The notes beneath the pieces are model-generated. The model was given only the letters and a program-made list of their open reading frames with translations, searched no databases and had not been told where the DNA came from. Shown in pieces: positions 10,491 to 45,150 of a DNA stretch of 64,000 nt. The translations under genes and the position numbers were made by a program. The stretch lies in assembly GCA_038044525.1 (NCBI GenBank), contig JBBSZV010000033.1, positions 7,131 to 71,130 of the forward strand, written 5' to 3'. Source of the DNA: Nanobdellota archaeon. GTDB lineage: Archaea; Nanobdellota; Nanobdellia; Woesearchaeales; GW2011-AR9. The stretch's first letter is position 1, and the number at the start of each line of letters is the position of its first letter.

Positions 10491-10618
10491 TACTCATCAA
10501 CAATTAAGGAAGTTCTATCTGCTTTTTTCGCCGGCCGCCGGTTTTCCGACACAAGTTTAAATAGTTTAAATGATGCATTTAAATAAAAATGGAATATTTA
10601 GTCAACTAATCTACTTAA

Positions 10619-10897
10619 GTGATGGGGGTAAGAAAAATGGATCGGAAAGCAGCTATAAAAGAATACGGGAATTTAATCAACCAGGCTAGGGAGGCCAAAT
10701 ATAGATATAATGCTAAGGTTGAGCATAGGTTTGATCCTACTGAAAGAGACAAAGAACTAATAAGGGAATATCATAACCTACGTGCCCAAGCAGCAGAAGT
10801 AGCGCGTTTTGTATATCCAGATTATCGATGGGGTTCTCAGGAAGATTTAGAGAGCGTGGTAATATGTGATATGACCAATTACTTAAAGTGGTGGTAG
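10619..10897 (+). CDS. Hypothetical small protein.
   Basis: 92-aa ORF. The start is uncertain (an internal M lies at residue 7). Confidence 0.3.
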   Translation: MMGVRKMDRKAAIKEYGNLINQAREAKYRYNAKVEHRFDPTERDKELIREYHNLRAQAAEVARFVYPDYRWGSQEDLESVVICDMTNYLKWW

Positions 10898-10909
10898 AAA
10901 GTTTATTCT

Positions 10910-11341: not shown

Positions 11342-11380
11342 GGCGACACTTTTTGTATCCTATGCGAGATAAACTTAAGG

Positions 11381-15574: not shown

Positions 15575-15596
15575 TTTTGTTTTAACCTCGCGAGTA

Positions 15597-17015: not shown

Positions 17016-17114
17016 ATAGCAACGATTAGTTATTTTTGAGTGGTAGTATTTAAGCTTTTTGGAACAAAGTGTTCTTATTTTTTACTAAATTGGGTATGAA
17101 AATAAAATAAAAAA

Positions 17115-17927: not shown

Positions 17928-17989
17928 CTACTCCTCTGGGAAATTCGGCTTTACTTTAAAAAATTATGTAAAAAATAAAAAATAAAAAT

Positions 17990-23397: not shown

Positions 23398-25383
23398 ATG
23401 CGAAAAAAGAGGTACACGATAGATAGCAGTAGCCTTAATCTCCCTTATCCGGCTTCTAAAAAAGGACAAGTGACTGTTTTTATTATTTTAGGGATTCTAT
23501 TGCTTCTGTCTTTAACTTTAGTGGTTTTTCTGCGTAAAGAACTTATAACCTTTAAACCGGGAGAAATAATCCCGACGGAAAAAGGAAAAGTGGAAAATTT
23601 CCTCACCAGCTGTCTGGAAAAAGTCGGCGGGGAAGCATTGCAGCTGGTGGGAGTGCAGGGCGGTTATATCACCATCCCTTCTGATGTTGTCAATGATTAC
23701 AACGCCCGTTTACAGGTTTCTCCTGCGCACATGGTTCCTTACTGGGCTTACGGTCAGAATGTACGCATACCTTCTCTTCCGGAAATAAAGGAACAAATGG
23801 ACAATTATATCGAAAAAAATATGCGCGCGTGCTTATTTTCACAGGAAGCTTTTCAGGAAGCTTATGATTTGATTGAAAAGAGCGATTTGATCTCCAATAC
23901 TGAAATAGTAGAAGGAAAAGTCATATTCAACCTGCGCTGGGAAATGGAAATACGCAGTAAAAACGGAGAGATCATTACGGAATTAATCAACCACATCGCT
24001 GAATCTCCAGTGCGTCTGAAAGAGGTATATGAAGTTTCCCGATCCATCGTAGAGAAAGAACTGGACACTTTGAAGCTGGAAGACATCACCCAAGATCTGA
24101 TTGCCTTGGAGCATCCTGATGTTCCGGTAGCCGGAATGGAATTGAGCTGTGCAAAAAAGAAGTGGGACCCTAATACGGTCCGCAGTACCTTACTGGAATT
24201 GATCCGCATCAATCTCCGGGAACTTAAAGTGCAGGGGACTGATCATGTGAATTTTCCGGAAGAATTGACCTATTACCAAAACCATTATGTCTGGGATCTT
24301 GGTTCTGAGTTCAAACATCCTTCGGTAAGCGTCTTATTTAATTTCGACCGGAGCTATCCTTACATTTTTGCCGTAACTCCTTTGAACGGGAATAGGATGG
24401 AAAGCTCCCAATTGGGGGGAACAGATGTGCTTTCTTTCTTATGCATCCAGACCTGGAAATTTACCTACGATATTATTTATCCCGTGCTGGTCAAAGTAAA
24501 AGATGAAACTACAGGATACACTTTCAATACCGCTTTTACAGTGCATTTAGTCAGAAACCTGCCCAGCCGGGAAGAAGCGGTGCCGCGAGCTTCATATTTT
24601 ACCGGTACAGTGAACGATGAAGAATATTGCGGAAACATGAATATGCCCATGACTGTCTTCGCGTACGAATTAGTGGAAAATGAACCGACCGGCGTCTATG
24701 ACCGCGAACCGCTGGAAGGGGTGCAGACCAGTTTTACTTGTCTGAAATATAAATGCGAAATGCTAGAAAGCGAATATGATTTTGCCGGACGCGGGCATGT
24801 TGCCGGGTACACCACTAATTTCCCCTACTGCGTCGGAGGGATACTGCGCGGAGAAAAAGAAGGATATAAAGAAAGCTGGCAGAGATTAGTCACGGCTGTA
24901 GGAAAAGAAGTAGAGCTGGATTTAGTTCCAGTCGCTGAAGTGCCGGTGCGGAAAATCACTTTAGTGAAACATCAGCTTGGCAGCGACGGGAAAGCGGGAC
25001 CAGCAAAAGAACTGTCTGATGAAGAGTTAGGCTTAGTCAAATTGATACTGCGCAAGAAAAGTGATCTTCCCGGAAGCGTTTTCCACGAATCAAGCATAAC
25101 CAAGGCGAAAACCAGCGATGAAGAAGTTTTAGGAGAAGAAGCGTTGGAATTTTTAGCCCGGGCAGATTTTACTTACGAATTAGAGGTCAGCGTGTTAGGG
25201 TCGGAAAAATTTATCGGCGGATATAAAGGAAACTGGGGCGTTTCATGGGATGCATTGCGTAATGCGGAAGAAATAGTGTTCCATGTCGTAAGCAGGGATG
25301 GCGCGAGCGAAGAGCAAATGTTCGATTTAATGTTGAACCTGCCGGAATACAGCCGATACGTTCCCTCGCCGGAAATAAGATAG
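23398..25383 (+). CDS. Large membrane-anchored (N-terminal TM) extracellular protein. First gene of the giant-protein operon.
   Basis: The likely start MRKKRY lies at 23398. The ORF-track start at 23332 has an unlikely leader. The TM helix reads QVTVFIILGILLLLSLTLVVFL. 660 aa with no known motif. Confidence 0.5.
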   Translation: MRKKRYTIDSSSLNLPYPASKKGQVTVFIILGILLLLSLTLVVFLRKELITFKPGEIIPTEKGKVENFLTSCLEKVGGEALQLVGVQGGYITIPSDVVNDYNARLQVSPAHMVPYWAYGQNVRIPSLPEIKEQMDNYIEKNMRACLFSQEAFQEAYDLIEKSDLISNTEIVEGKVIFNLRWEMEIRSKNGEIITELINHIAESPVRLKEVYEVSRSIVEKELDTLKLEDITQDLIALEHPDVPVAGMELSCAKKKWDPNTVRSTLLELIRINLRELKVQGTDHVNFPEELTYYQNHYVWDLGSEFKHPSVSVLFNFDRSYPYIFAVTPLNGNRMESSQLGGTDVLSFLCIQTWKFTYDIIYPVLVKVKDETTGYTFNTAFTVHLVRNLPSREEAVPRASYFTGTVNDEEYCGNMNMPMTVFAYELVENEPTGVYDREPLEGVQTSFTCLKYKCEMLESEYDFAGRGHVAGYTTNFPYCVGGILRGEKEGYKESWQRLVTAVGKEVELDLVPVAEVPVRKITLVKHQLGSDGKAGPAKELSDEELGLVKLILRKKSDLPGSVFHESSITKAKTSDEEVLGEEALEFLARADFTYELEVSVLGSEKFIGGYKGNWGVSWDALRNAEEIVFHVVSRDGASEEQMFDLMLNLPEYSRYVPSPEIR

Positions 25384-25397
25384 GGGTAGATTAGGTA

Positions 25398-28300
25398 ATG
25401 ATAGGTTCGCAAAAAAAGAGATGCTGGAGAATTTTGGTTTTCATAGTCCTGGGGCTGTTCCTGAATCTTCCGATCGTAAGCGCATTAGAGATATCTAATG
25501 TCCGCGCCGAAATTATTTCACCTACTGAAGCAGAAATATCATGGGAAACTGATGAGCCTGCCGGAAGTTTTGTTGATTATGGTCTTTCAGAAGAAACCCT
25601 CGGAAGAGTCGGCGATGCCAGCCAAGTGGTGGAGCACATAGTAGCGTTATCTGATATTGCGCCGCAGTCAACTTATTATTTTCAGGTGCAGAGCGGAGAA
25701 GTCATAGATAATAATGATGGAAGCCTGTATTCTTTCAATACCCTCGCTCCCGACACTACCGCACCAGAAATAAATGTTGAATTGCCGGCAGCGGTGCAGG
25801 GAAACAGGATTGATTTCTCCGGAACCACTGAATTCGGAGCGACGGTCAATGTTTTTGTGAACGGCCCCTTGTTAAGGGTTGTGGCTGCCGACGCAGCTCT
25901 GCCTGACGATCCGTCACAGGGGAGATTTACCATCACTGATCTGGCTCTGGACAGCAATAAGGATAATCTGGTTAAAATAGAAGTGATTGACCTAGCTGGG
26001 AATGATGCATCGATGCAGGTGACCGTATTTTCAGACACCAGCAAACCAAAATTGGATTTGGTGGTCCTGCCGGAGTTCGTGAGCGAGAAAAATTTTATCC
26101 TGAGAGGGACTATCTCTGAGGAGAGCTCTTATGAGATTTTTATTGCTGAAGATTCTGTCGCTGAAGGTCAAGGAACTGCCTTGCAGGCCGAATTATCTTT
26201 AGAAGAAGGCGGAAACAAGATCAAGATTGTGATTACTGATAAGGCCGGCTGGGTGACTGAAGAGGAATTCAACATCATCTCTGATACCAAAGCACCTAAA
26301 GTAGAATTTGATTTCGCCAAAGGAAAGGAATATTACCAGGGAAATGCAGAGACTGACATTTCAGGGGCTACCGAACCTGGCGCAGAAGTGTATCTATTTA
26401 TTTTCCGTCCACTCACTTATGAATTCACTCCCACCTTTAACAAAGCTTGGGAAAAAGTTACCGCTGATGCGCAGGGAAGGTTTACCTTTGAGGAAGTAGA
26501 TCTGGAAAGCCCACCTATCAGTTTAGAAGATCTTGCTCCACGGCAAATTCCTTCAGGCTTAAATGCTGAAACTATTTTTCCTATAGAACAGATACAGGCG
26601 GCACAGAAATTTACCTATCATGTGTATTTAGTTGCCGAAGATAAAAGCGGCAAAACAGGATATGCAAAAAAGCTGGTCAATATCAATACCTGCTATTCTG
26701 CCGATTTTGATTTTGACGTGCAATCGCTGGCCAGGTTCCAGGCTCCTCTGCGATTAAACCCGACTTTGCTTGATGACGGCAGGGAAGAAGTAACTGCGGT
26801 ATTTAATTTTAGTTACCGCGGGAAAGGAATTTCAACCCAAGGCCAGTCAGCTTTCCAGATCCAGAACGTCCAGTTCGATAAGGCCTGCACTCAAGGGATG
26901 CTGGAAGACGACAGCACTAAGATAGGATGCAATATTTTCCCGCAGCAGCCGCGGCTGATGCCGAATGCTGATAAGACTGCCTGGTATATCACGGCGCCTC
27001 TTTTCACTACAGAAAAGTTCAGCGATAAGAAAGAAGATTTCTGGGACGAATTCGGCAGGCGGCAGATAACGTTCCCTCTGAAAATTAAAATTACTTACCG
27101 TGATAATCTGGGCGGCGGAAAGATGAGCGACCTTAAGACACAGGTATCTTGTTATGAGCTAGGTTATTTCATCGACATACCTCTCGAAAGCAAAAACATG
27201 ATTCCGGATTTCTTAGCTGAAGAAGGTCTGGATGCAATCGAATTTACTATCGATAAAATTGATATTGTTTTGCCTTATCTGGAAAATGCTATTTTAGTTA
27301 CGGGGATTGCCTGGGTAAGTTCGTTCATAGGTAAGTTAGCCGTCAGGTATGCCCGGCTGGTCAGTTCTAAATTAGAAGCTTTCTTCAGCAAAGGAAAAGC
27401 TAAGAATGAGCAATGTCCGGGGGATCAGGAAAAATATTATACCAAGAGTGAGATCCAGCACTGGAGAGAGCTGAAAGCGCGCGGCTTGCTGGAAGGAGAA
27501 GAAAGATTAAGAAAAGATTGGGAAGATGAATCGCAATCGATAGAAGAATTATGTCCGAGCACTGCTGGCCTGTGGGAAGCAGAAAAAGTTATTGATCAAG
27601 CCTACCGCTGGACCGGAGACAGAGTATTATGCCGGACCGTTCCTGCCGGATGGACTTCTACCAAAGATAAACCGGAAATTGATACCGTCATCGCGGGGCA
27701 GAACCAATGCACTGCCTCCAGCCGAGGCGTACCGCTTCTGGAAATTGAGAATTGCGGAAAGCGCATAGAAGAAAATACCAATATTGCTAATCCTAATGCC
27801 AAAGCAGCGCGGTTAGTCGACGAAGGAGAATTCACCTGTTACCAGTCGGGAGATTTCTTGTATTACGCAAATCAAGATTCAGCGACGACATTGCAAAATG
27901 GCGGTTCTTTAGTGCGGCTGGAAAGAGTTCACGATTTTGGTTTGAGCATTCAGCAGGCGGGATTATACGCTGGTGCAGGAGATTTGATTGCCTATCAGCC
28001 GCCAGGTTCTGACCAATATGTCATCGGGCAGGATAAAACCTGTGAACAGGCGTGCAAAAATCCGCGGAAATCCGGCTACCGAGCTTATGTGGAAAAAGGA
28101 TTAAGGACCGTCACTGCCGACGGACAGGAAGGATCTTTTGGCTGTTTCCAGGAAAGGGTCAACGAATTTGGAGATATAAACCCGGTTGGCGTCGCTACTC
28201 AGGATAATCCTAACGATCCCCAAGGGATTGGTTCCAGACAGTTTTCGGCAGGTTATACCCGCGACTGTTTCATCGATTATCAAAAAGGCGGTGTCACTCC

Positions 28301-30848
28301 CGGTGATGCGAATATCAATAATCCTTGTAACGTCCATGATGATTGCACCGGCGGAGCGTTATGTCTTTCCGGCGTTTGTTCCGCGCCTCCGTCTAATAGT
28401 GTTGCGCTAAAAGGATCAACTGACACCACCACCGGTTTATTGCAGTGCGTATGCACATACGACGAAAAGCAAGTGAAACATTATCCCGGTGTCAGGACGG
28501 CTATGAAAGAGCAGAATGGCATCGCTGAAGAGTGGTCTTATCATCAGCAACAAGTATTCAAAGAATCAAATAATCGTTTCGGAACGTATTATCCGGAATG
28601 GAGATATTATGGCGGCCGGGACTTTTCGTCTGCTTTTGGAGCAGATTACCTTTTAGATTATTTCCAGTCGGATAAACAGGTGCATCAAGTCAGCCCCAAC
28701 ACGCAGTTCTTAGGCGCATATCAAACGGTCTGCTTATCGCGGGTAAGAGCGCATTTAATCACATTAAAAGCAATTCTGGAAGGACTGCGCAATTGCATTC
28801 AGGAAGCAAAATACACCGGCCTGCGCGATGCAGGAGTTTGTAAAACTATTTTCACCCAGCAGGTATGCGGTTTAGTCTACAAAGCGATCGCTTACTTTGT
28901 CAACCAATGCAGCCCCTTTGATTTCAATGACGAAAGCAAAGGAACATTAGGGGGCATCGGCGCAGTTACTGAAGCGACCTTCGGCTCTATCGGGGAAGCC
29001 ATGCAGTCGTCCATCGATGATGTGAAAAGCGATTATGGCAACGCGCAGTTGAATAATTATTTTGCTGCCGGCGCAGAAGGATTGACTCAGTCTATGTGCA
29101 TGGCTGCTTTCGGCTACGACTGGCCGTTGGGCGCAGATTTTATTCTTGATGCTGCTTATGCAGTTCCAGGAAAAACAACTGTGCATGTAATTCCCGCGCA
29201 CCGGGAATTGTCAACTTACGATCCTTCTTCTGGGAATGCCGTCTATAATTACGAAGTCGGCGCTTTGATATTGCCGGGCTGCAGGGTCAGAAGTTATAAT
29301 GTTTATCTGAAATGCGTCGGTCCGGAAGATTCCGGAAAACCGGGCGTGCAATGCGGCGAGCAGGGCTGCGACTGCTTGCATACGACAGAAGTGAACTCAT
29401 TATTGGAAGGGGATAAGAAACATTCCCTGGATGGCGGCAGAGGATTTGATCTTAAGCCGAACGGATTTTTCAGCGTTCCCATACCTTCTCCGCAGAAAGT
29501 AAACAAACCGTTCAGGTACGACCACGTCGTGGTAGAGCTGCAGCTGGACCAGTCTGAACAAGGAAATGAAGACAAATGTTACGATACCGGATACGAAGAC
29601 GGAAAATTCTATTTCCCGATCGTTGATGTATCGCCGCCGGGAACGGGAGTATGCCAGGTGCAGCCATTGACGGGAAAATATACTTGTCCTGAATTCATGA
29701 GTTTATTTGGCGGTGAAGAAGGAGCATACCTGCAGGATCCGTACATCAGCTGTTATGATGCCGATACGCGTTCCTGGATTCCGTGCATTACGCCGAATAT
29801 CTTTACCAAGGGCGAAGAGATAAAAGTGCGCGCGGAAGCGGTCAGCGACGGAAAAAAATATTGCGTGAAAATGAGCACTTCGGGATTACCTCAGCAGGAT
29901 GTGCAGTTCCGACAACTGCCAGTGGGCATCCCAGGAAATTTCCCGGTGGAAATGTCTTTAGGTTCAGTCACGCCGAATTTGTTTACTGGTGCAACAACGA
30001 CTATAGTATTAACCGGCGGAGACAAGAGCTGCGAATCTAAATTAAAACTGATAGATTTCCCGGCGGGAGACATCGATACTGCAAGTTTGAAATTTACTTA
30101 CCAGAAATTAGGCGATGATAGTTACAGGATATTTGTTCCAGAAGGAATTTCAATTTCATCTGAAGGCGGTTATAGTGCCAATGGAGCAACTTTAACCAAG
30201 AATGGAAAAGAAGAGCTCACTTCTGCTGAAATACGAGAAGCCGTATTTGACTATAAAGGGATGCGTTTCAGCAACGCTGTCGGCGCTCCGGGAAGCGGGG
30301 ACAGCTGTGAATACAGAGTCAGGGCGGCGGCAGGGGCGCAGTACGCGCAGAACGAAAAGACCATTTCCGTCACCGCAGAATTATTGCAGCCGGATGCGGT
30401 AGGTAATTGTTACAATGCAGAGATCCCGGTCAAGAGCCAGATAGGGTATTCGAGATACACGCAGCCTATTAATCTGCGGTTGGAACCTTTAGTATCGCAG
30501 GCAGCCAGTCAGATGTATCAGGATTTCATGCGTGAAAATTATGCAAAAGTTATCGGCAATGCGGAAAGCATCGTCAACCGCGGCATCTCCGATATCGAAG
30601 ATGCGACCGCATTATATTATCTGGTCGCGGCGAAAATCGCAGACAGCCAGAAAAGGAATGTGGACTGGAAGGTTTCTTTCCGGGAAGATATCTGCGATCT
30701 GATCGGCGTGTTTAAAACCAGAAAATCCGGCAGCATACCTCTCGGCCAATATCCTGACGAAGTCAGGAGCAGCGCAGAATACAAGAAGATAGAAGCATAT
30801 TTCGGCGAGATTGAAAAAGAAGCCCAATGCGGAGTTACGAATGTTTAA
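25398..30848 (+). CDS. Giant secreted protein (1816 aa): signal peptide, an N-terminal fibronectin-III-like domain, Ig-like repeats, and a long Cys-rich C-terminal region.
   Basis: Signal peptide ...VFIVLGLFLNLPIVSALE. The FN3-like segment reads ISNVRAEIISPTEAEISWETDEPAGSFVDYGLSEE...STYYFQVQS. More than 60 Cys lie in the second half, including CNVHDDCTGGALCLSGVCS. Confidence 0.6.
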   Translation: MIGSQKKRCWRILVFIVLGLFLNLPIVSALEISNVRAEIISPTEAEISWETDEPAGSFVDYGLSEETLGRVGDASQVVEHIVALSDIAPQSTYYFQVQSGEVIDNNDGSLYSFNTLAPDTTAPEINVELPAAVQGNRIDFSGTTEFGATVNVFVNGPLLRVVAADAALPDDPSQGRFTITDLALDSNKDNLVKIEVIDLAGNDASMQVTVFSDTSKPKLDLVVLPEFVSEKNFILRGTISEESSYEIFIAEDSVAEGQGTALQAELSLEEGGNKIKIVITDKAGWVTEEEFNIISDTKAPKVEFDFAKGKEYYQGNAETDISGATEPGAEVYLFIFRPLTYEFTPTFNKAWEKVTADAQGRFTFEEVDLESPPISLEDLAPRQIPSGLNAETIFPIEQIQAAQKFTYHVYLVAEDKSGKTGYAKKLVNINTCYSADFDFDVQSLARFQAPLRLNPTLLDDGREEVTAVFNFSYRGKGISTQGQSAFQIQNVQFDKACTQGMLEDDSTKIGCNIFPQQPRLMPNADKTAWYITAPLFTTEKFSDKKEDFWDEFGRRQITFPLKIKITYRDNLGGGKMSDLKTQVSCYELGYFIDIPLESKNMIPDFLAEEGLDAIEFTIDKIDIVLPYLENAILVTGIAWVSSFIGKLAVRYARLVSSKLEAFFSKGKAKNEQCPGDQEKYYTKSEIQHWRELKARGLLEGEERLRKDWEDESQSIEELCPSTAGLWEAEKVIDQAYRWTGDRVLCRTVPAGWTSTKDKPEIDTVIAGQNQCTASSRGVPLLEIENCGKRIEENTNIANPNAKAARLVDEGEFTCYQSGDFLYYANQDSATTLQNGGSLVRLERVHDFGLSIQQAGLYAGAGDLIAYQPPGSDQYVIGQDKTCEQACKNPRKSGYRAYVEKGLRTVTADGQEGSFGCFQERVNEFGDINPVGVATQDNPNDPQGIGSRQFSAGYTRDCFIDYQKGGVTPGDANINNPCNVHDDCTGGALCLSGVCSAPPSNSVALKGSTDTTTGLLQCVCTYDEKQVKHYPGVRTAMKEQNGIAEEWSYHQQQVFKESNNRFGTYYPEWRYYGGRDFSSAFGADYLLDYFQSDKQVHQVSPNTQFLGAYQTVCLSRVRAHLITLKAILEGLRNCIQEAKYTGLRDAGVCKTIFTQQVCGLVYKAIAYFVNQCSPFDFNDESKGTLGGIGAVTEATFGSIGEAMQSSIDDVKSDYGNAQLNNYFAAGAEGLTQSMCMAAFGYDWPLGADFILDAAYAVPGKTTVHVIPAHRELSTYDPSSGNAVYNYEVGALILPGCRVRSYNVYLKCVGPEDSGKPGVQCGEQGCDCLHTTEVNSLLEGDKKHSLDGGRGFDLKPNGFFSVPIPSPQKVNKPFRYDHVVVELQLDQSEQGNEDKCYDTGYEDGKFYFPIVDVSPPGTGVCQVQPLTGKYTCPEFMSLFGGEEGAYLQDPYISCYDADTRSWIPCITPNIFTKGEEIKVRAEAVSDGKKYCVKMSTSGLPQQDVQFRQLPVGIPGNFPVEMSLGSVTPNLFTGATTTIVLTGGDKSCESKLKLIDFPAGDIDTASLKFTYQKLGDDSYRIFVPEGISISSEGGYSANGATLTKNGKEELTSAEIREAVFDYKGMRFSNAVGAPGSGDSCEYRVRAAAGAQYAQNEKTISVTAELLQPDAVGNCYNAEIPVKSQIGYSRYTQPINLRLEPLVSQAASQMYQDFMRENYAKVIGNAESIVNRGISDIEDATALYYLVAAKIADSQKRNVDWKVSFREDICDLIGVFKTRKSGSIPLGQYPDEVRSSAEYKKIEAYFGEIEKEAQCGVTNV

Positions 30849-31410
30849 ACGGGGAAAGATAGAGATGGAAATGTTTATCGTATTGATCACCATGGTCTTT
30901 ACCAGCGCGGTAATATTATTCTTAGTTTATAGCGGGACTATCGAAGTGAAAGAAGGCGCCTCTTCCGAGCCGGTATTGAACGCAGAATTCCTTCCGGCAG
31001 GAAGGGAAGGCGTCTTGGCGATAAAAGATTTTGATTTCTGCAGTTATGTGGATGAGAATCTTAATTGTTTGGCAGAGCAAGATGAATTTGGAAAAGCCGA
31101 AAATGTTTATGTGCGGTTCGTGGTCGAGAGCAGCGTTACCGGCGGGCAGGCGATACTGCTGCGAAATTATGAGATGCGTAATCCTTCTGGAGAAATAATA
31201 TTACGGGCAGAACAGAAAAATGCTTATAATTTTGAATTAAGCAGCACTAGAAGTACGGAAAATGTGGTCTTCGGAGAATATTTCGTCATCGGCGAGGATG
31301 CGGTTGCCGGAGAGTATACTTTGGATGTGATCATCGAAAATCCATTATTTGAAAAGAAGATAACTTTGACCAAGAGCTTTGAAGTGGTTGACTGGGAGGA
31401 GCAGCCATGA
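30811..31410 (+). CDS. Small membrane-anchored protein in the giant-protein operon.
   Basis: The TM helix reads MEMFIVLITMVFTSAVILFLVYSG. It overlaps the upstream gene by 38 nt and has an ATGA overlap with the downstream gene. Confidence 0.45.
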   Translation: MKKKPNAELRMFKRGKIEMEMFIVLITMVFTSAVILFLVYSGTIEVKEGASSEPVLNAEFLPAGREGVLAIKDFDFCSYVDENLNCLAEQDEFGKAENVYVRFVVESSVTGGQAILLRNYEMRNPSGEIILRAEQKNAYNFELSSTRSTENVVFGEYFVIGEDAVAGEYTLDVIIENPLFEKKITLTKSFEVVDWEEQP

Positions 31411-33845
31411 AAGGAAAAATAATTTTTCTGATCGGTTTGATCTTGGTCAGCGCAGTCTTCGCCCAGCAGGTGCAGGTCGGGACGGTCGGGGTAAATCCTG
31501 TTGGTGTTTACGATGGATGCTCAGGAAAGAGAATAGGATTAGTTGGAGCTTCTAATACGGTGGATATGGACGCTCAGGGGAATAAAGTCCCTTCTTCGTG
31601 GAATAATGTTAACATTATCAAAGTGATGTGCCCTGGCGCTACAGTATTTCTTCATGCGAAAGGGGGAACTTGGCCTGGCGCGCAAGTATCTTTAGTCCAA
31701 GCAGCGATACAAAACGATAATCTTGATTATATGATTCTGGATCCTTCTGCTAATGGCCAGCAGGCTTCTTCAGGTATAACGTCTGAAGGATATAAGGCGG
31801 CAGCGATCAATTTAGCTCAGATAGTAAAAAATAAAAATAAAGATATTAAAGTTATAATGCTGACCAATACTCCGCTTAAAGGGGCTGGCGGCGGATATGG
31901 AACGCCAGAAACGGTGCAAAAAGTTAAGGCTTTCAATGCAGATCTCTTGAATAATAAACTGGGAAGACCTGATTTGATCGATTATGCAGTCGATACTTAT
32001 TCTGCAACTGAAGACCCTGCCGGAAGCGACAGCTGTGGAAAATATTGCGGCGGAGATAATCTTCATTTCGGCGAAGCGGGAAGAAAACAGGTCATGAAAG
32101 CGGTCATGGATATAGTGTTTGGAAATCCGACTGTCGCAACCGCCACAAGCAATGCGCCGGTTTCCCAATCTTTGGGAGCAGAGAATTGCCTGAACAAACA
32201 ACGCTGTGAGGAGATTGATGCGATATGGCTGAAGATCGTGGCCTGGATCAATAATGCGGCGCGGAAAGGGCGTGTTTTTGATACCGTTGACGGGTGGAGA
32301 AATCATCAGGAAGCCCGTCCAACTGTGGTGATAAACCCAACTATAATCAAACCCAGCGCCGTTTCTACTAATTTTTGTATTGCAACTATAGGAACCAACG
32401 AACAGAAAGCGCTGTTGGATACCATCGCCTGGGCCGAAGGAACAAAGGAAAAATATAATCTGATGTTCGGGGGAAAAGAATTTACAACGTATAGCTCGCA
32501 TCCAGTTGAAACCGGAGAGATGCCGGAAAAAGGTTTTCCTTGGCCCGGCGGCACATCCACCGCTGCAGGAAGGTACCAATTTTTATACAGAACTTATAAA
32601 GATCTCCGTGGCCGCGGATTCTTCCAAACGGGATTCTTACCTGCAGAACAAGATAAAGCCGGGTTATGGTTATTAGAGACTAAGCGCGGCCTTTCTCAAA
32701 ATGAATTAGCTATCGCCGTGAATTCAGGCAATCTTGCTCCCGTATGGGATAAATTAGCCGGGGAATGGGCGTCGTTGCCCTGCGATACAACTAATGTGAA
32801 AATAGGAGATAGAACTTATTGTTTGGCAAAAGGAAAAAGTTTTTATCCCGGCCAGACGGCAAGAAGTTATCAGGAACTGAAAACCGTCTATCAAACTTGT
32901 CTGCAGTACCACGCCACCGGAGGACTTTCCGGCGCAGCTTCTTCTCCAGCAGCTTCAGGAATTTCTAATGCGGCATCAGAAGCATTCGACTTTGTTTATG
33001 GCATCTGGGGGGGGGGCAGTTCTCCTGAAACCAAGCAAGGAAGCGTAGTCAGCTTCAAGAACAGCATCCTTGAACAGGCCTGTACTGCGGAAAGCTTAGT
33101 GTGCGTCATCCCTACTAAAAATGTGGGCAAGCGGGAAGCTGGCGGCATAGGCAATTGCCGTGCCGGAATGGTGCAGGTAGGGAATATCTGTGTAGACCAA
33201 TACGAAGCGATGCTGGCAAATAAAAATAATGGAGAAGTGTGGTCTCCCTATTGCGCTCCCGGAACAGAGATAAGCGAACTGCAGGCGGTTTCTATCAGCG
33301 GAGTTGTTCCCCAGGCGACCATCAATCAGCTGCAAGCCAAACAAGCGTGCGAAAATGCAGGGAAAAGATTGTGCACGGACGAAGAATGGTTATCAATCTG
33401 TCAGGGAGCAGAAGGAAGGACATATCCTTATGGCAATGTTTTACAGCAGGAAACGTGTAACGACCAGACCATTGCCAAGCCTTACGCGCACGTAACTGAT
33501 GCTACCGTAAAAGAATATTGTCCAAACCATCAAGAGTTTTATAAAAAACAGCCGGCCGGAGTAACTTACAACACCAATCCTTGGATGATCCACCCTAAAA
33601 ATAATCAGAATGCCGTTTCTTTGGAAGTAACCGGCAACAAGGCAGGATGTAAAACTCCTGAGCAGGTTTATGATTTAGTCGGAAATATTGCAGAATGGAC
33701 CGCCGATCCGGCAGGAACGTTCAGGGGGGGATATTTCCAACTAGCAGCAGGAACAAATAATGGCTGTTTGTACAAAACAACTTTTCATCCGGCATCTTAT
33801 ACCGATTACTCCATAGGTTTCCGCTGCTGCGCCGGCCTTTCTTAA
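31407..33845 (+). CDS. Secreted multidomain protein with a central lysozyme-superfamily-like region and a C-terminal FGE-sulfatase/C-type-lectin-fold (DUF323-like) domain.
   Basis: Signal peptide MKGKIIFLIGLILVSAVFA. The segment IAWAEGTKEKYNLMFGGKEFTTYSSHP shows the E-x8-(D/N)-x5-T pattern of T4-lysozyme-like enzymes. The C-terminus reads ...YDLVGNIAEWTADP...GGYFQ...YSIGFRCCAGLS, which resembles FGE/SUMF1-fold domains ending in GFRC. Confidence 0.5.
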   Translation: MKGKIIFLIGLILVSAVFAQQVQVGTVGVNPVGVYDGCSGKRIGLVGASNTVDMDAQGNKVPSSWNNVNIIKVMCPGATVFLHAKGGTWPGAQVSLVQAAIQNDNLDYMILDPSANGQQASSGITSEGYKAAAINLAQIVKNKNKDIKVIMLTNTPLKGAGGGYGTPETVQKVKAFNADLLNNKLGRPDLIDYAVDTYSATEDPAGSDSCGKYCGGDNLHFGEAGRKQVMKAVMDIVFGNPTVATATSNAPVSQSLGAENCLNKQRCEEIDAIWLKIVAWINNAARKGRVFDTVDGWRNHQEARPTVVINPTIIKPSAVSTNFCIATIGTNEQKALLDTIAWAEGTKEKYNLMFGGKEFTTYSSHPVETGEMPEKGFPWPGGTSTAAGRYQFLYRTYKDLRGRGFFQTGFLPAEQDKAGLWLLETKRGLSQNELAIAVNSGNLAPVWDKLAGEWASLPCDTTNVKIGDRTYCLAKGKSFYPGQTARSYQELKTVYQTCLQYHATGGLSGAASSPAASGISNAASEAFDFVYGIWGGGSSPETKQGSVVSFKNSILEQACTAESLVCVIPTKNVGKREAGGIGNCRAGMVQVGNICVDQYEAMLANKNNGEVWSPYCAPGTEISELQAVSISGVVPQATINQLQAKQACENAGKRLCTDEEWLSICQGAEGRTYPYGNVLQQETCNDQTIAKPYAHVTDATVKEYCPNHQEFYKKQPAGVTYNTNPWMIHPKNNQNAVSLEVTGNKAGCKTPEQVYDLVGNIAEWTADPAGTFRGGYFQLAAGTNNGCLYKTTFHPASYTDYSIGFRCCAGLS

Positions 33846-33890: not shown

Positions 33891-35780
33891 ATGAGCGTCG
33901 AATCATTCTTAGAGATCTGTAAACGGCAGTATGAGCCGCAGCATCTTTCCGTATTTAATGCAGCTTTGGCCTTTTCTCAAAAGCATCTCGGCGAAGTAAA
34001 ACGATTGGCAGGTGATTCCTTTTTTGACCATAATGTCCGGGCGGGAGAAATCTTGGCGGACAGCAAAGTGTCGCCGGAAGTGGTGGTCGCCGGTCTGCTG
34101 CATGGGATTTTAAAATATTCTTCTGAAAAAGAGGTCTTAAATATTTTCGGCAAAGAGATCCTGCTTTTGCTGAAAGGAGAAGAAGAAATCAAGGCGGTCA
34201 AATCAAAAAATCCTCTTCTGGAAGCCGAAGCCCTGCGGAGAATATTGCTTGCGACATTAAGAGACGTACGGGTTATTTTTGTTAAGCTCGCCGCTAAATT
34301 AGATAATCTTAGGGCCATCTCGGTGCTTCCCGAGGAAGACCAGAGACGCATCGCAGAAGAAGTAATGGAAGTATATGCGCCGCTGGCTAACAGATTGGGA
34401 TTGGAGAAAATAAAAAATCCTCTGGAAGATTTGGCGCTGCAGATCCTGAATCCGGAAAAATATCGCGAAATAACCGAATTCCTGGAAGAATCACGTGAGC
34501 AGCGGGAAGCGTTGATCAAAGAAATGATTCAATCGGTGAAAGAGTTGGCCGCGGGAAAAGTTGAGATCATCAAAATCAAAGGCCGTTCCAAGCACATCTA
34601 CAGCATCTACAAGAAGCTGGTGCAGCGCTGCGTGCCTTTAGCAGAACAATATGATTTGTCGGGCATCAGGGTAATTGTTCCGGAAGTAAATGATTGCTAT
34701 ACTCTCTTGGGACTCTTGCACGAGAAGCTCGAGTCCGCGGAAGGAAGATTAAAAGATTATATCGCCAACCCTAAACCTAACTTTTATCGTTCTCTTCACA
34801 CCGGAATTCTGTCGTCATCAGGAAAAATTGTGGAGATTCAGATTCGCACCCCGGAAATGGATGAGCTTGCTGAGGAAGGGCTGGCTGCGCACTGGCGGTA
34901 TAAGAAACTGAATTCCGATGAATTATTTGAAAAGAAAATTGCCTGGCTGAAAGGAGTTTTAGATATGCAGAAGGAAGAAAACCACGAATTTTTAGAGATG
35001 GCTAAAGTAGACGTGTTTGGGGATAATATCTATTGCTACACGCCAAAAGGCGACGTTAAAGAACTGCCTAAGGGAGCAAATATCCTTGATTTTGCTTATA
35101 TGATCCATGAAGAAGTCGGAAACCATGCGGTAGGAGCGCACGTGAACGGAAAATTCGTCTCTTTGAAACAGCAGCTTTCTTCCGGAGATGTAGTGGAGAT
35201 ACTTACCAACAAAAGCCAGCGCCCCCGACGCGACTGGCTGAAATTAGTCAAATCTGCGAATGCCAGAAATAAGATTCGGAAATCTCTTAAAGAATATGAT
35301 AAGCTTCCGGCTCTTCATTTTAAGCAGCTTAAACCGGTGGTGACAGAAGAGCAGGGCATTTTAGCAGAAGCGCCCGACTATGCCAGCGCAGTATGCGTAT
35401 TAGCTAAATGCTGCAATCCTCTGCCGGGAGAAGATATTGCCGGCTTAATCACTAAAAGAAGAGTCATTTCCGTCCACAGGATCGATTGCCGCGCGGCATT
35501 GAAAGAGCAGGAGCGCTGGGTGGCGGTGCAATGGAAAAATGGATTCAACCAAAAAATAAGATTTTATGCTGTAGCTGAGGAAAGGAGCGGCCTGTTGGCT
35601 GATCTTTTAAACGTCATAGCCAATACCGGTTTTGAGGTTAAGGAAGCAAAAGCAAAATTGTTAGACATAACCTTAGCGCAATGCTCTTTTTTAGTGATAC
35701 CAAAAGATTTGGAACATCTGAAAGAACTGGTAAGGCGGGCGCAGAAAGTAAGGGGGATAAAAAAGATGTATTTCGGATGA
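33891..35780 (+). CDS. Long RelA/SpoT homolog (RSH) with HD-like, (p)ppGpp synthetase, TGS and ACT domains.
   Basis: The synthetase motifs are GRSKHIYSIYKKL, IRVIV...CYTLLGLLH, KDYIANPKPNFYRSLHT, VEIQIRTPEMDELAEEGLAAHWRYK. The TGS domain reads YCYTPKGDVKELPKGANILDFAYMIHEEVGNHAVGAHVNGKFVSL. In the HD region, LLHGIL replaces the usual LLHDVVED, so the hydrolase may be inactive. Confidence 0.75.
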   Translation: MSVESFLEICKRQYEPQHLSVFNAALAFSQKHLGEVKRLAGDSFFDHNVRAGEILADSKVSPEVVVAGLLHGILKYSSEKEVLNIFGKEILLLLKGEEEIKAVKSKNPLLEAEALRRILLATLRDVRVIFVKLAAKLDNLRAISVLPEEDQRRIAEEVMEVYAPLANRLGLEKIKNPLEDLALQILNPEKYREITEFLEESREQREALIKEMIQSVKELAAGKVEIIKIKGRSKHIYSIYKKLVQRCVPLAEQYDLSGIRVIVPEVNDCYTLLGLLHEKLESAEGRLKDYIANPKPNFYRSLHTGILSSSGKIVEIQIRTPEMDELAEEGLAAHWRYKKLNSDELFEKKIAWLKGVLDMQKEENHEFLEMAKVDVFGDNIYCYTPKGDVKELPKGANILDFAYMIHEEVGNHAVGAHVNGKFVSLKQQLSSGDVVEILTNKSQRPRRDWLKLVKSANARNKIRKSLKEYDKLPALHFKQLKPVVTEEQGILAEAPDYASAVCVLAKCCNPLPGEDIAGLITKRRVISVHRIDCRAALKEQERWVAVQWKNGFNQKIRFYAVAEERSGLLADLLNVIANTGFEVKEAKAKLLDITLAQCSFLVIPKDLEHLKELVRRAQKVRGIKKMYFG

Positions 35781-37865: not shown

Positions 37866-38363
37866 ATGCAGGAAAAATCAGAACTCTCGACCCTTCTGGA
37901 AAAATTGCAGTTTCCGCAGACGGATGAGAGATTCAATCTTGATTATAATTATAAGATTAAAGCTGATTGCGATTTCTATAAAGGGCGCATCGCCTTGAGC
38001 AAAAGCGGCGAAAAATTGTCGGATATTCTTGCTGCTCCCGCCATATTCGGCCGTTATAGGATAAAAGAAGTGATAATCGTGTCTAATGATGAAGGCATGA
38101 TGGTTCACCCACGCGACGGCGGGCAGCCGACGGAATATCAAGCCGATACGTGTTATCATAACGTTGATTTTCACCATCCTGATCTGGAAGAGATGCTAGA
38201 AAACCGCGGCTACCGTTTAGGGCAGGAAGTTGAATGCGTCGGCGGGGATTACTTTATGGCCGCAGGAGCTTCGGGAGAGCTGACCATCGGCCAATTAAAA
38301 GACCTCTTGGCGTTAGGCTGCGTTAAGCTGATAGAGATAGAGCTTGATTTTTTACGCAAATGA
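37866..38363 (+). CDS. Hypothetical protein.
   Basis: 165-aa ORF, no motif. Confidence 0.3.
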   Translation: MQEKSELSTLLEKLQFPQTDERFNLDYNYKIKADCDFYKGRIALSKSGEKLSDILAAPAIFGRYRIKEVIIVSNDEGMMVHPRDGGQPTEYQADTCYHNVDFHHPDLEEMLENRGYRLGQEVECVGGDYFMAAGASGELTIGQLKDLLALGCVKLIEIELDFLRK

Positions 38364-38500: not shown

Positions 38501-39148
38501 ATGGATTTCACTTCAGCACTAACAGAACTTGAGCATTTATTTAAGGAATCTGAAGAAGCAAAGGCACGAAGTGGAATAGCAGCAAGAGCATTTGAAAAGA
38601 AAGATGCTGAAATCCGAGAGTCGCTGCGGAACGGGCATAGTACTGGCGATCAAATTCTTGATTGGGCTCTTTCAAATGGATATCCTTACCAGGAAAACAA
38701 ACAAAAAGCCCAGATGGTTTACGATTACCTTCAGGAACACGTAGGAGATTACTTTTTCTTCTTGGGTAGAGAATATTGGCGTCCTTTCATTTGGGATATT
38801 CACGTTGGAAAAATAGGATCTCCCCCACTCTTAAATAGAGAAGGGCAGCTTTCTCTTGTAGTTGAAGAAGGAACATTGATGCAGAAGAAAGTAGCGCATT
38901 ACACAGATATTCCTTTAGTGAATAATATTTTTCCCAATGAAAAGAAAGAGCCCTCTATACAAGGCCTATTTTTAACTCCTTTCCAAAGGAAAGAATTAAT
39001 TGAGTCAATTTCTTCGTGTTGGGATGATTCTAGTGATAGCTACTATATCCTTGGTGCAGGTGAAAAAACAGTATTATCTTACCTTCATCAACAAAAAATA
39101 ATTCCTGAAGCAACTAAAGAAAGTCTGCAAGCATTACTTTCTAAATAA
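38501..39148 (+). CDS. Hypothetical protein.
   Basis: 215-aa ORF, no motif. Confidence 0.3.
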   Translation: MDFTSALTELEHLFKESEEAKARSGIAARAFEKKDAEIRESLRNGHSTGDQILDWALSNGYPYQENKQKAQMVYDYLQEHVGDYFFFLGREYWRPFIWDIHVGKIGSPPLLNREGQLSLVVEEGTLMQKKVAHYTDIPLVNNIFPNEKKEPSIQGLFLTPFQRKELIESISSCWDDSSDSYYILGAGEKTVLSYLHQQKIIPEATKESLQALLSK

Positions 39149-39186: not shown

Positions 39187-40152
39187 ATGTCAGAACCAAA
39201 ACAAATTCCCACCACCGAGAACATCGTATTTAAGCCCGCTTTCATAGAACGATATTCGCAGTTAACTGACTGGGAAGAATTCAAGAAGTATTCTCTTTCT
39301 TTCCTGCGCAGGAGCATCCGGGTCAATACCTTGATGGGGACGATCCAGGAGGCGCGGAAAAGCATCGAAGCCAAGGGATGGAAGCTCATGCCGATCCCCT
39401 GGTGCAAGGAAGGTTTCTGGATATCCCATGATGAAAGAAGGGATGTAGGAAACTTACTGGAGCATCATACAGGAAAAATTTACGTACAGGAAGCGGCTTC
39501 CATGATTCCGCCATTAGTATTAAAGCCAAAACCAGGAGACATAGTCTTGGACATGGCCGCTTCCCCTGGAAGCAAGACTACGCAGATGGCAGCGATGATG
39601 AATAATAAAGGATTAATCATTGCTAACGATTACAAAGGCGATCGTCTGCAGTCCTTAGGGATAAATCTGCAGCGCAGCATCACCACTAATTGCATCATCA
39701 CGCTGATGCGCGGGCAGGGCATAAAAGGGATGCAGTTTGACAAGATCCTATTGGATGCGCCTTGTTCGGGAACCGGCGCTATCAGGAAGAGCCTTAAGAC
39801 CATCGGCATCTGGAATCCGCACATGATCACCAAATTAGCCCGAGAACAGAAAGAACTTATCACTGTAGCTTTTGAAAATCTTAAGCCGGGCGGAGAGCTG
39901 GTCTATTCCACCTGTTCGGTCGAGCCGGAAGAGAACGAAGGGGTAGTCAGTTATCTGCTTAAGAAATATGAAAATGCTAAAGCGATAAAAGTTACTCTTA
40001 AAGGGCTGAAAACCAGCCCCACGATAGCGGAATTTGAAGGAGAACAATATCATCCTGAGGTAAAGAACGCTTTGCGCATCTGGCCGCAGGATAATGATAC
40101 CGAAGGTTTTTTCGTTGCAAAGCTACGAAAAATACCCACGAACGAAGCGTAG
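39187..40152 (+). CDS. NOL1/NOP2/Sun-family RNA (cytosine-C5)-methyltransferase (aTrm4/RsmB-like).
   Basis: Contains VLDMAASPGSKTTQMA, FDKILLDAPCSGTGAIRK and LVYSTCSVEPEENE. Confidence 0.75.
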   Translation: MSEPKQIPTTENIVFKPAFIERYSQLTDWEEFKKYSLSFLRRSIRVNTLMGTIQEARKSIEAKGWKLMPIPWCKEGFWISHDERRDVGNLLEHHTGKIYVQEAASMIPPLVLKPKPGDIVLDMAASPGSKTTQMAAMMNNKGLIIANDYKGDRLQSLGINLQRSITTNCIITLMRGQGIKGMQFDKILLDAPCSGTGAIRKSLKTIGIWNPHMITKLAREQKELITVAFENLKPGGELVYSTCSVEPEENEGVVSYLLKKYENAKAIKVTLKGLKTSPTIAEFEGEQYHPEVKNALRIWPQDNDTEGFFVAKLRKIPTNEA

Positions 40153-40249
40153 CGAAGTGACTTGGGTTTCTTTGTTGCCAAGATAAGAAAATTGTAAGTT
40201 ACAACAAAGAAACTCACGAACGGAGCGCAACGAAGTGACTTGGAGTTTT

Positions 40250-40660
40250 TCATCGTTTTATCCTCCACCACACTGCACCCGCTAATAACCCATTACTCAC
40301 GAAGCCGAGAATAGGTCTGTACGGCTCAAAATAGGTCATCAGAGTAGTTGCTCCAAATACAAAAACAAGTAATTTATTACAAATGGGACAGGCAAACGCG
40401 AAGAAACTACCTATTCCTCCCGTAGTTGCAATCGTATCGCACTTTTTGATTGTATTTTTTTTGTAGTAATGGACTCCAACATACGCGCCGAGTAAAATAG
40501 AGCTACTCGCGAGAAAAATATAATCCAATGTATTTATTGGAGTCATTCTTGTAAAAAATGAGTTCGGCAAAAGTGAGGTAATGATTCCAGATACAACAAA
40601 GAAAAGTAATCCTGTTCCGAGTCCTAAGAGTACATATTTCAATTTCTGGTTCATATTCAT
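40250..40660 (-). CDS. Small polytopic membrane protein with an intramembrane CxxC (ACPICN).
   Basis: 136 aa with four hydrophobic segments. CxxC is FAFACPICNKLL. Adjacent to the DsbA-like gene. Confidence 0.4.
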   Translation of the reverse strand: MNMNQKLKYVLLGLGTGLLFFVVSGIITSLLPNSFFTRMTPINTLDYIFLASSSILLGAYVGVHYYKKNTIKKCDTIATTGGIGSFFAFACPICNKLLVFVFGATTLMTYFEPYRPILGFVSNGLLAGAVWWRIKR

Positions 40661-41526: not shown

Positions 41527-42261
41527 TTAATTAAGCTCAGCATCAATGACCTGCTGGAAAACACTAAACGGTTGCGCTCCACTGATGAGTTTTCCATTGA
41601 TGATGAACCCCGGCGTTCCTGAAATTCCTGCTGCACTTCCATCAGCTAAATCTTTTCGAATTTCCTGCTTTTGCGCTGGATCGCTCAAACAGGCTTCCCA
41701 TTTAGCAACGTTTAAACTAAGTTCCTGAGCCCAACGTTTGTAATCAGCACTGCTCTTTCCTCCTGCTCCTCCATTGCTGAAGATTATGTCATGGTACTCA
41801 AAGTATTTTTCCTGTTCCCCAGCACAATTGGCGGCAATCGCAGCAGGTTCAGCCTGTTGATGGAAGCCTAATGGAAAGTCACGATAGACAAACTTCACTT
41901 TCCCAGTTTTAATGTACATACTCTCAATTTGTGATAATGTTTGCTGATAAAATCGTTCACAGAACGGACATTCATAATCACTAAATTCAATTATGGTGAC
42001 TGGTGCATCTTTTTCTCCCAAGAAAGGATCATCATCAGCAAGTGCTTTCATATCGGTTATTCCTGCACTTGGCGCTTGTGGTGCTCCTCCTAATGTGGGC
42101 GCCCCAACTGCACCCGTAGGAGAATTATTGCCTCTAAAGGCCATGAATGCTAATACTACAATTAAAACTATTGTAGTGACTTTCCAGAACATTGATTTAT
42201 TGATAGTTATACTATCACTCTTTTTTGCTTTTAGTTCTTGTTGCTCTTCGATTTTAACCAC
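41527..42261 (-). CDS. DsbA-family thioredoxin-fold thiol:disulfide oxidoreductase, membrane-anchored and exported.
   Basis: The TM anchor reads FWKVTTIVLIVVLAFMAF. The CxxC motif reads FSDYECPFCERF. The DsbA-like core reads VKFVYRDFPL...GTPGFIINGK. Confidence 0.65.
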   Translation of the reverse strand: MVKIEEQQELKAKKSDSITINKSMFWKVTTIVLIVVLAFMAFRGNNSPTGAVGAPTLGGAPQAPSAGITDMKALADDDPFLGEKDAPVTIIEFSDYECPFCERFYQQTLSQIESMYIKTGKVKFVYRDFPLGFHQQAEPAAIAANCAGEQEKYFEYHDIIFSNGGAGGKSSADYKRWAQELSLNVAKWEACLSDPAQKQEIRKDLADGSAAGISGTPGFIINGKLISGAQPFSVFQQVIDAELN

Positions 42262-45047: not shown

Positions 45048-45067
45048 ATGTCAAGATGGCAGCCAGG

Positions 45068-45150
45068 ATAGCTAAATATTTAGAAAGCAAAATCTTTAAA
45101 AAACCAAATCTTTAGAAAACTAAATATTTAGAAAACTAAATCTTTAAATA
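45068..45150. repeat. Degenerate tandem array (about 5 copies) of an AT-rich unit of about 16 bp (AAAACTAAATmTTTAGA) in the intergenic region.
   Basis: Read directly: ctaaatatttagaaagc / aaaatctttaaaaaacc / aaatctttagaaaact / aaatatttagaaaact / aaatctttaaatag. Confidence 0.4.

Follow-up and report, generated by a model that had tools for sequence, protein, structure and literature searches.

A 64,000-nucleotide stretch of contig JBBSZV010000033.1 (assembly GCA_038044525.1, positions 7,131 to 71,130 of the forward strand), assigned to a Nanobdellota archaeon and referred to here as the window, carries at 31407..33845 on the plus strand (stop codon included) an open reading frame (ORF) of 812 aa that encodes a secreted modular lytic enzyme. 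The protein is constructed of a signal peptide and three domains, namely an SGNH esterase, a phage lambda-type lysozyme and a formylglycine-generating enzyme (FGE)-sulfatase fold, and it contains 24 cysteines. This disulfide-rich three-module enzyme of a DPANN archaeon probably degrades bacterial peptidoglycan, working together with surface partners encoded beside it and being diversified by cassette swapping. A previous sequence-only reading of the same DNA had described a secreted DPANN protein in which a lytic domain is joined to a C-terminal FGE/C-type-lectin-fold domain, and that description is supported: the ORF and all the quoted peptides are present as described, the lysozyme-like and FGE regions stand, and the C-terminal fold is solid on the Pfam and profile scores given below. 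What that reading overlooked is the N-terminal SGNH domain and the cluster of four genes to which the lytic gene belongs.

The proteins encoded in the window are archaeal in type, including RadB/Rad51, TYW3, GCD14, an archaeal LonB lid domain, an archaeal S-layer protein and uS2. The nearest genome is the Nanoarchaeota metagenome-assembled genome (MAG) H32-bin054_1 (locus L010), which displays 96% DNA identity across 13 kb and holds a 96% identical copy of the lytic gene, and all named homologs of the lytic protein derive from Nanoarchaeota or Woesearchaeota MAGs. Since the archaeal window genes, the nearest MAG and the named homologs all fit, the DPANN attribution stands. No anomaly of base composition was observed over the lytic gene, and tRNA and Rfam scans of the 64-kb window were empty. 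The product begins with the hydrophobic segment MKGKIIFLIGLILVSAVFA, followed by QQ, which on reading of the sequence fits secretion; a Sec-type signal peptide was delimited by a hydropathy scan at aa 1-19 (31407..31463, +), its cleavage site being placed by sequence reading. In the AlphaFold2 (AF2) model, the predicted local distance difference test (pLDDT) is low at aa 1-29, and disordered linkers connect the domains.

A lytic function is indicated by aa ~320-505 (32364..32921, +), which profile matches define as a lambda-lysozyme-like (GH104-like) lytic transglycosylase/muramidase domain. A single-sequence phmmer search matched aa 330-458 to phage lambda lysozyme (1am7/3d3d) with E=2.6e-8, and the family profile matched the same structures with E=4.6e-24 over chain residues 6-146 of 158; the PHROG endolysin family phrog_90 was found with E=4.5e-26, together with the tail lysozyme phrog_17230 and the phage hub protein 8kea. 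In the alignment, Glu19 of lambda R (AWSEGT) corresponds to E344 (IAWAEGT; 32436-32438, +), the predicted catalytic residue, which is kept in 24/25 family sequences, and the motifs AAGRYQ and WASLP are conserved in the family as well. The domain was modelled with pLDDT mostly >80, and the same module is found in bacterial and phage proteins too. The lysozyme-like assignment of the sequence-only reading thus proves statistically solid on the profile value, but the fold is lambda/GH104-like instead of T4-like, and the E-x8-(D/N)-x5-T pattern that had been cited for it is absent, the actual spacing read from the peptide IAWAEGTKEKYNLMFGGKEFTTY (aa 340-362) being E344-x6-N351-x8-T360. The T4-type (GH24) assignment was rejected because the spacing is wrong, Pfam Phage_lysozyme (PF00959) gave no match on the lytic protein at E<=1, and the alignment goes to lambda R. 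By analogy with lambda R, the domain carrying E344 would probably act as a lytic transglycosylase, with hydrolase chemistry as the alternative.

Ahead of the lysozyme lies an SGNH/GDSL esterase domain (aa ~31-244; 31497..32138, +), which was recognized through PDB and Foldseek matches and its signature blocks. It matched PDB entry 9kr0 with E=8e-5 as a single sequence and with 1.9e-7 as a family profile, the latter also matching 4ppy, and the best 50 Foldseek matches of the modelled domain are all SGNH esterases (for example 4ppy, E=2e-7, TMt 0.70), with TMt values reaching 0.75. The four signature blocks are intact and conserved in the family, comprising S49 within GASNT, G86/G87, N116 and D217-x-x-H220; the catalytic positions S49 and H220 are encoded at 31551-31553 and 32064-32066 (+), respectively. 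The AF2 model of the domain has pLDDT mostly >85, and Pfam Lipase_GDSL_2 scores 13.7 on the window protein, under its gathering score of 32.9. SGNH domains of similar shape are commonly carried by phage tail spikes, minor-tail proteins and esterases. The fusion of this domain to a lytic-transglycosylase-like domain suggests a candidate peptidoglycan O-acetylesterase. A literature search on the closest structure, 9KR0, returned nothing relevant.

The C-terminal domain (aa ~566-812; 33102..33842, +), delimited by Pfam and profile matches, is a disulfide-rich FGE-sulfatase/C-type-lectin-fold domain of the type designated here as subtype A, and is considered a putative binding module. Pfam PF03781 scores 31.5 bits against a gathering score of 23.3, and the profile aligns with human FGE (2aft) at E=4e-10 over the whole domain (chain residues 27-283). 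As read from the alignment, the catalytic C336 and C341 of FGE are replaced here by L779 and N784, and the structural C346 alone is retained, as C787; the top PDB match is the inactive paralog SUMF2. Because the FGE catalytic cysteines have been lost, the domain is probably a binding module, and it most likely targets the enzyme by binding a cell-wall or envelope glycan. Relatives of subtype A are abundant, with >5,000 matches in the family and thousands of close relatives at 40-47% identity over ~98% of the domain, and occur as short standalone secreted or lipoprotein-like proteins. All of the named ones (among P0194-P0313) belong to Myxococcota, from Polyangiaceae, Kofleriaceae and Sandaracinaceae, and they share all cysteines and framework motifs of the archaeal domain, the FGE catalytic pair being absent there too. 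The Myxococcota that bear these standalone proteins are predatory bacteria. In a literature search of limited coverage, no paper linking the FGE-sulfatase fold to lysin targeting was found.

Two further segments connect the domains. Between the SGNH and lysozyme domains sits a short element termed LINK (aa ~255-303; 32169..32315, +), defined by module mapping as a helix plus a beta-hairpin with C261, C267 and W274, whose columns are near-invariant. LINK is the sole piece matched in all full-length fourth-gene products of the cluster described below, and it may act as a docking element. The lysozyme and FGE-fold domains are separated by a disordered Ser/Ala/Gly-rich linker (aa ~507-564; 32925..33098, +; pLDDT <50), and this linker contains a G10 homopolymer at 33007-33016, the sole G/C run of at least 8 in the window. 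The database entry P0001, from a 29-kb ENA contig, corresponds to the same protein, but its tract is one G shorter, and the resulting frameshift brings a stop at aa 546 and removes the FGE domain; the 90% cluster of P0001 has 8 member sequences. At the 96% identical locus L010 the tract is interrupted (TGGGGCGGAAGC). The difference in the G tract could be due to slipped-strand phase variation or to a homopolymer assembly error.

The lytic gene is the last member of a co-directional cluster (window 23398-33845), in which the order is a 662-aa protein, a giant protein of ~1,800 aa, a transmembrane (TM) protein of ~185 aa and a LINK-containing mosaic peptidoglycan hydrolase. Each of the four products starts with a signal peptide or with one hydrophobic stretch, and all contain many cysteines. 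The first gene (23398..25383, +; conserved start at M23 of the listed ORF) encodes a protein with 'KKGQ' plus a hydrophobic stretch at its N-terminus, which may be read as a class-III (pilin-type) signal, followed by an alpha/beta domain and tandem beta-sandwich domains. Its AF2 model (pLDDT 82.6) places an N-terminal helix ahead of these domains and gave weak Foldseek matches to adhesins and pilins, SdrD and SpaA; the family comprises 347 homologs, still at least 48% identical at rank 120, and is without annotation or Pfam assignment. The giant protein (1816 aa; 25398..30848, +) possesses a signal peptide, N-terminal fn3/Ig-like domains and 43 cysteines, and a profile search against the PDB gave no relatives. 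The small protein (189 aa from the conserved start; 30841..31410, +) is composed of an N-terminal TM helix and a beta-rich ectodomain; it has no Pfam or PDB relatives, and one of its own relatives shows a sub-threshold match to Wzt_C. At its two ends, the small gene shares 8 nt with the giant gene and 4 nt with the lytic gene. None of the three partner genes matched PHROGs.

The same cluster in the same order was observed at the metagenomic loci L001-L008, in 13 species-representative Nanoarchaeota genomes of GTDB and in two distant Woesearchaeota (L024/L025), and its neighbourhood, including enolase, a long RelA/SpoT homolog, GAPDH and RsmB, is mostly shared. In the 13 species-representative loci, the identity of the three partners to the window copies ranges from 60 to 99%. 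Seven of these 13 genomes (L011, L012, L014, L015, L019, L021 and L022) are titled 'uncultured Methanosarcinales archaeon'; the loci so titled show 60-94% protein identity to Nanoarchaeota MAG loci, and one of the contigs encodes P0005, whose 90%-identity cluster has an NCBI-named Nanoarchaeota member. Automated MAG submission has probably attached the wrong taxon to these records.

Unlike its conserved partners, the fourth gene is a different module mosaic at almost every locus. Its catalytic modules include the lambda-lysozyme-like type, DUF2272, Phage_lysozyme2, SleB-like, 3D, Glucosaminidase and Metallophos plus Peptidase_M15_4, the SGNH domain is either present or absent, and the FGE fold is of subtype A, of subtype B or absent. 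Even P0002, the closest listed homolog, shares 92% identity with the window protein over the SGNH domain yet has the other FGE subtype. The exchange is best resolved by blastn comparison of the window with L022, where the flanks share 85-89% DNA identity and the interval between them shows no detectable similarity. This interval, a 2.8-kb exchangeable cassette at 31056..33835 (+) opposite 10216-12796 of L022, spans the small-protein ectodomain and nearly the whole lytic gene. On the left, the 89% collinearity ends at 31055, ~71 codons into the small gene and just past its TM segment; on the right, collinearity (85%) is back at 33836, ten bases before the lytic stop. Protein identity between L022 and the window amounts to 94% for the 662-aa protein, 91-94% for the giant, 92% for RelA and 59% for the small protein, and the fourth gene of L022 reads LINK - FGE - DUF2272 - Glucosaminidase. 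The fourth gene owes its diversity to the exchange of modules and entire cassettes by recombination, not to a diversity-generating retroelement (DGR). The small-protein ectodomain and the lytic enzyme are exchanged together, and this joint travel suggests, though it does not prove, that they interact. The modules of the lytic gene seem to have been imported from bacteria or phages and put together in the archaeon, since the FGE relatives are Myxococcotal, the lysozyme is of bacterial and phage type and the SGNH domain is phage-tail-like.

Murein is the most likely substrate, because all the modules seen in the fourth slot belong to murein-specific families and pseudomurein lacks a bond that these enzymes can cut. 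Pseudomurein contains beta-1,3-linked N-acetyltalosaminuronic acid and is cut neither by lysozymes nor by lytic transglycosylases. The attack on bacterial envelopes envisaged in the sequence-only reading is accordingly plausible, every alternative slot module belonging to a murein-specific family. In the proposed mechanism, the SGNH esterase would take O-acetyl (or other acyl) groups off the wall or envelope glycan, the lambda-type domain would cut the bond between N-acetylmuramic acid and N-acetylglucosamine via the single Glu344, probably as a lytic transglycosylase, and the FGE-fold domain would serve as a targeting module in place of the cell-wall-binding domain of an endolysin. The esterase would unmask the substrate, because lytic transglycosylases are held in check by peptidoglycan O-acetylation and lysozymes are blocked by it (PMC6627197); in the case of the SGNH enzyme Ape1, lytic transglycosylases have been described as requiring prior de-O-acetylation (bioRxiv 10.1101/2021.09.23.461501). 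Alternatively, the SGNH domain might, like the esterases of phage tail spikes, deacylate a different glycan of the envelope. The enzyme would be made together with the adhesin/pilin-like 662-aa protein, the giant protein and the small membrane-anchored protein, and it would probably represent the exchangeable 'warhead' of a surface assembly, because its gene is translationally coupled with three conserved extracytoplasmic partners; such an assembly would serve to breach bacterial hosts or prey, or to feed on them. A more far-reaching possibility, put forward tentatively and on balance doubtful, is that the cluster encodes a lineage-wide 'wall-breaching' surface organelle of Woesearchaeota-type Nanoarchaeota, in which a conserved stalk or adhesin, made of the 662-aa protein and the cysteine-rich giant, presents the warhead docked via LINK and the co-exchanged small ectodomain, and in which the catalytic modules and the FGE-fold lectin domain determine the bacteria that a given archaeal strain attaches to or preys on. 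If this were true, the hosts of these abundant archaea would become predictable from sequence.

Several points weigh against this interpretation. The partners gave no recognisable function in PDB profiles, PHROGs or Pfam, and since they lack a functional assignment, the idea of a surface apparatus draws on synteny and overlap alone. The nearest structural neighbours of the SGNH domain are generic acyl- and acetyl-xylan esterases, its substrate is not readable from fold or sequence, its phage relatives act on capsules or O-antigens, and its resemblance to Ape1 holds at the superfamily level only. The binding role of the FGE-fold domain is deduced solely from its position, its lost catalytic residues and its variability, and the AF2 model is moderate for this fold, with weak loops (pLDDT <50 at aa 673-728 and 770-802). 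Finally, the search for a DGR covered 64 kb of this genome, which leaves a slight chance of a DGR acting in trans from elsewhere, though nothing supports one.

Among the rival explanations, the one that survives best, though it is unlikely, regards the protein as a scavenging exo-enzyme that acts on free peptidoglycan or necromass to provide amino sugars and peptides, the partners being unrelated surface proteins. The same domain evidence serves this explanation equally, the signal peptide looks cleavable and the protein has no membrane anchor of its own, and recycling of cell debris has been proposed for DPANN archaea, whose metabolism is reduced (PMC9723730). Against it stand the tight overlap with three surface genes that is conserved in every locus, the swapping of the small-protein ectodomain along with the lytic gene, and the very fast, arms-race-like turnover of modules on a conserved background, although none of these points is decisive.

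Much less probable is a genuine enzyme of the FGE/EgtB/PvdO type, or an enzyme acting on the archaeon's own envelope or that of an archaeal host, with pseudomurein or S-layer glycans as the substrate. The former would agree with the Pfam FGE-sulfatase match and with the name 'SUMF1/EgtB/PvdO family nonheme iron enzyme' that NCBI gives to several homologs, but the catalytic cysteines are replaced and no N-terminal DinB/EgtB domain was detected. The latter would agree with the fact that the DPANN hosts known so far are archaea, but it has to contend with the murein specificity of every alternative slot module and with the resistance of the pseudomurein bond to such enzymes.

Also very improbable is a DGR whose reverse transcriptase (RT) and template repeat (TR) are remote or act in trans and which uses the FGE/C-type-lectin-fold domain as its variable region. 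The idea is tempting because DGR variable proteins are often built on this fold and DGRs are known in Nanoarchaeota (PMC4372165, PMC5006420, PMC5758913). No RT family was detected in the window ORFs of at least 150 aa, nor was any RT found within +-10 kb in L001, L003, L004, L005 and L008. No template-like repeat of the 3' 900 nt of the gene exists in the window (best plain identity 35/60), where the adenine-tolerant repeat scan returned poly-A tracts only, and no TR-like repeats were found in six loci by blastn and the adenine-tolerant scan. The absence of an RT and a template repeat from the window, as stated in the sequence-only reading, is therefore borne out by the RT, blastn and adenine-tolerant scans.

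When the 13 GTDB loci were scanned for RT motifs, the only RT to emerge was that of L019/L023. This relative (L023 = L019, CAYIZT010000017.1) does possess a real DGR near its lytic gene, at 9415-11698 on the minus strand, consisting of an RT (9415-10515; RVT_1, E=6.5e-25), a TR (10538-10634) and a variable repeat (VR; 11036-11132), all on that strand. Over the 97 nt of the TR/VR pair, all 9 mismatches fall on TR adenines and none (0/68) on other positions, and because this true pair was recovered with no mismatch at any of its 68 non-A sites, the scan is considered sensitive enough. The VR lies inside a separate 285-aa gene without a Pfam family, ~65 codons ahead of its stop, and the TR does not match the lytic gene, from which it differs at 37/68 non-A sites. 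This DGR is inserted between GAPDH and RsmB, ~6 kb downstream of the lytic gene of L023; at the corresponding place, the window lacks an RT and has two unrelated ORFs, at 37866-38363 and 38501-39148.

Among near-identical homologs of the lytic protein, most differences fall into two clusters within the final ~130 residues, a concentration that would be compatible with a DGR. Between P0013 and P0067, however, 14/14 consecutive C-terminal differences carry the P0018 residue, so that P0067 is a recombinant mosaic of P0013 with a P0018-type C-terminus, and recombination with a P0018-type allele accounts fully for the differences. A second pair, P0025 and P0065, displays 10 substitutions over ~100 residues without explanation, and no TR occurs in their loci. 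The nearest relatives of the domain are non-archaeal, standalone Myxococcota proteins, and with thousands of non-DGR bacterial homologs, the C-type-lectin/FGE scaffold alone is not diagnostic of a DGR target. The 'DGR-target-like' framing of the sequence-only reading was hence misleading, given the Myxococcota relatives, the different target gene of the L023 DGR and the diversification by recombination.

An endolysin or tail-associated lysin derived from a provirus is scarcely credible, for although the lysozyme module matches phrog_90, phrog_17230, lambda R and the phage hub protein 8kea, sister proteins contain Phage_lysozyme2 and SGNH relatives occur in phage tail spikes, the other three cluster genes are without PHROG matches, the window is devoid of capsid, terminase and integrase families, the same chromosomal neighbourhood (enolase, RelA/SpoT, GAPDH and RsmB) is present in all loci examined, and a murein hydrolase would be useless to an archaeal virus. 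A phage or bacterial origin of the modules is likely, but the gene is cellular.

Other features of the window deserve a brief description. Directly downstream of the lytic gene, at 33891-35780, lies the long RelA/SpoT homolog (HD_4 + RelA_SpoT + TGS + ACT), and almost every related locus has it downstream of the cluster too. A (p)ppGpp synthetase/hydrolase of bacterial type, as found here in DPANN, is unusual among archaea. A membrane-anchored DsbA/thioredoxin-like gene at 41527-42261 (-) fits the many disulfide-rich secreted proteins of the window, and an insertion-sequence-type DDE transposase (DDE_Tnp_1 + DUF772) is found at 42936-43853 (-). Large secreted or surface proteins are abundant, including those at 13187-20461 (-), 50770-52185 (+), 55264-57846 (+) and 60587-61897 (+); the surface proteins of the window comprise proteins bearing PKD and CARDB domains, an archaeal S-layer protein, a DUF5667 protein and several acidic proteins with repeats and C-terminal TM anchors, a richness that is consistent with a lifestyle heavy in surface interactions. 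Two repeat regions were also recorded, namely four 16-nt-spaced A/T-rich tandem units (AAATCTTTAGAAAAC-like) at 45067-45148, downstream of an M29 peptidase gene, and, at 40128-40250 downstream of the RsmB-like gene, a pair of 45-nt direct repeats that share 80% identity and lie 78 nt apart.

The preferred interpretation, that of a secreted peptidoglycan-degrading enzyme which works with surface partners and is diversified by cassette swapping, bears on the hosts and lifestyle of archaea of the Woesearchaeota/Pacearchaeota type, which are debated and for which murein-degrading enzymes are the main genomic hint of life on bacteria. The enzyme family slips past surveys based on domain lists, as its lysozyme module falls outside Pfam and its targeting domain is annotated as 'nonheme iron enzyme'. 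It occupies a fixed slot in a conserved surface cluster, and its cassette turnover resembles an arms race. The FGE-fold domain and the pair of SGNH and lytic transglycosylase modules would provide tractable handles for identifying bacterial partners. At the same time, a tempting inference is corrected, since an FGE fold in DPANN need not mean a DGR target.

Extracellular murein lytic transglycosylases with a possible bacterial association have been reported from Woesearchaeota and Pacearchaeota (PMC8204110, PMC9723730), and archaeal peptidoglycan hydrolases, surveyed by Strock et al. in 2025, have been reported to kill bacteria (PMC12352652). The catalytic domains in these earlier reports are GH23/SLT, GH108 and similar ones, paired with LysM or PG_binding (PMC8204110, PMC9723730, PMC12352652), and in the part of the survey's domain lists that was available, neither FGE-sulfatase nor DUF2272 is among the entries (PMC12352652). 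A literature search of limited coverage returned no paper on the architecture of SGNH, lambda-type lysozyme and FGE fold, on the four-gene cluster or on the cassette exchange. The present enzyme resembles the GH23/SLT transglycosylases of Woesearchaeota and Pacearchaeota in that both are secreted murein-cleaving enzymes of DPANN archaea that are read as anti-bacterial tools. In contrast with the surveyed archaeal hydrolases, it is lambda/GH104-like rather than SLT/GH23 or GH108, its FGE fold takes the place of LysM or PG_binding, an SGNH domain is added, and its gene sits within the conserved four-gene cluster, where cassettes are exchanged.

Compared with its individual counterparts, the lysozyme module is alike to lambda lysozyme R (1AM7/3D3D; GH104) in the profile match over nearly the whole enzyme, the correspondence of Glu19 with E344 and the AGRYQ and WASLP motifs; it differs in its place inside a secreted archaeal protein of 812 aa, in being ~40 residues longer with an extra Cys-containing insertion at aa ~459-505, and in remaining unrecognised by Pfam Phage_lysozyme. 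The esterase shares the SGNH fold and an intact Ser-Gly-Asn-His signature with Ape1 and other carbohydrate SGNH esterases, but unlike Ape1 it has no CBM35 and is fused in cis to a glycan-cleaving module. The C-terminal domain has the motifs LCT..EW, PYG, DxxGNxxEW and GFRC in common with FGE/SUMF1, SUMF2 and the C-type-lectin proteins of DGRs (TvpA and the archaeal AvpA), and its most variable segment is the GG-GFRC loop region, which is the ligand-binding face in DGR variable proteins; in contrast with FGE and the DGR proteins, it contains no catalytic cysteines (like SUMF2), is accompanied by neither RT nor TR, carries extra disulfides and belongs to a subfamily shared with Myxococcota. As a whole, the protein recalls modular phage endolysins, in which several catalytic domains are combined with a binding domain and domain shuffling is rampant, as well as polymorphic effector loci with exchangeable C-terminal cassettes, in which a conserved 'delivery' part is accompanied by a variable 'effector' part subject to recombinational replacement. 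It is distinguished from both by its location on a cellular archaeal chromosome, by an immunity gene being neither seen nor needed, and by partners that show no relation to known secretion or toxin-delivery systems.

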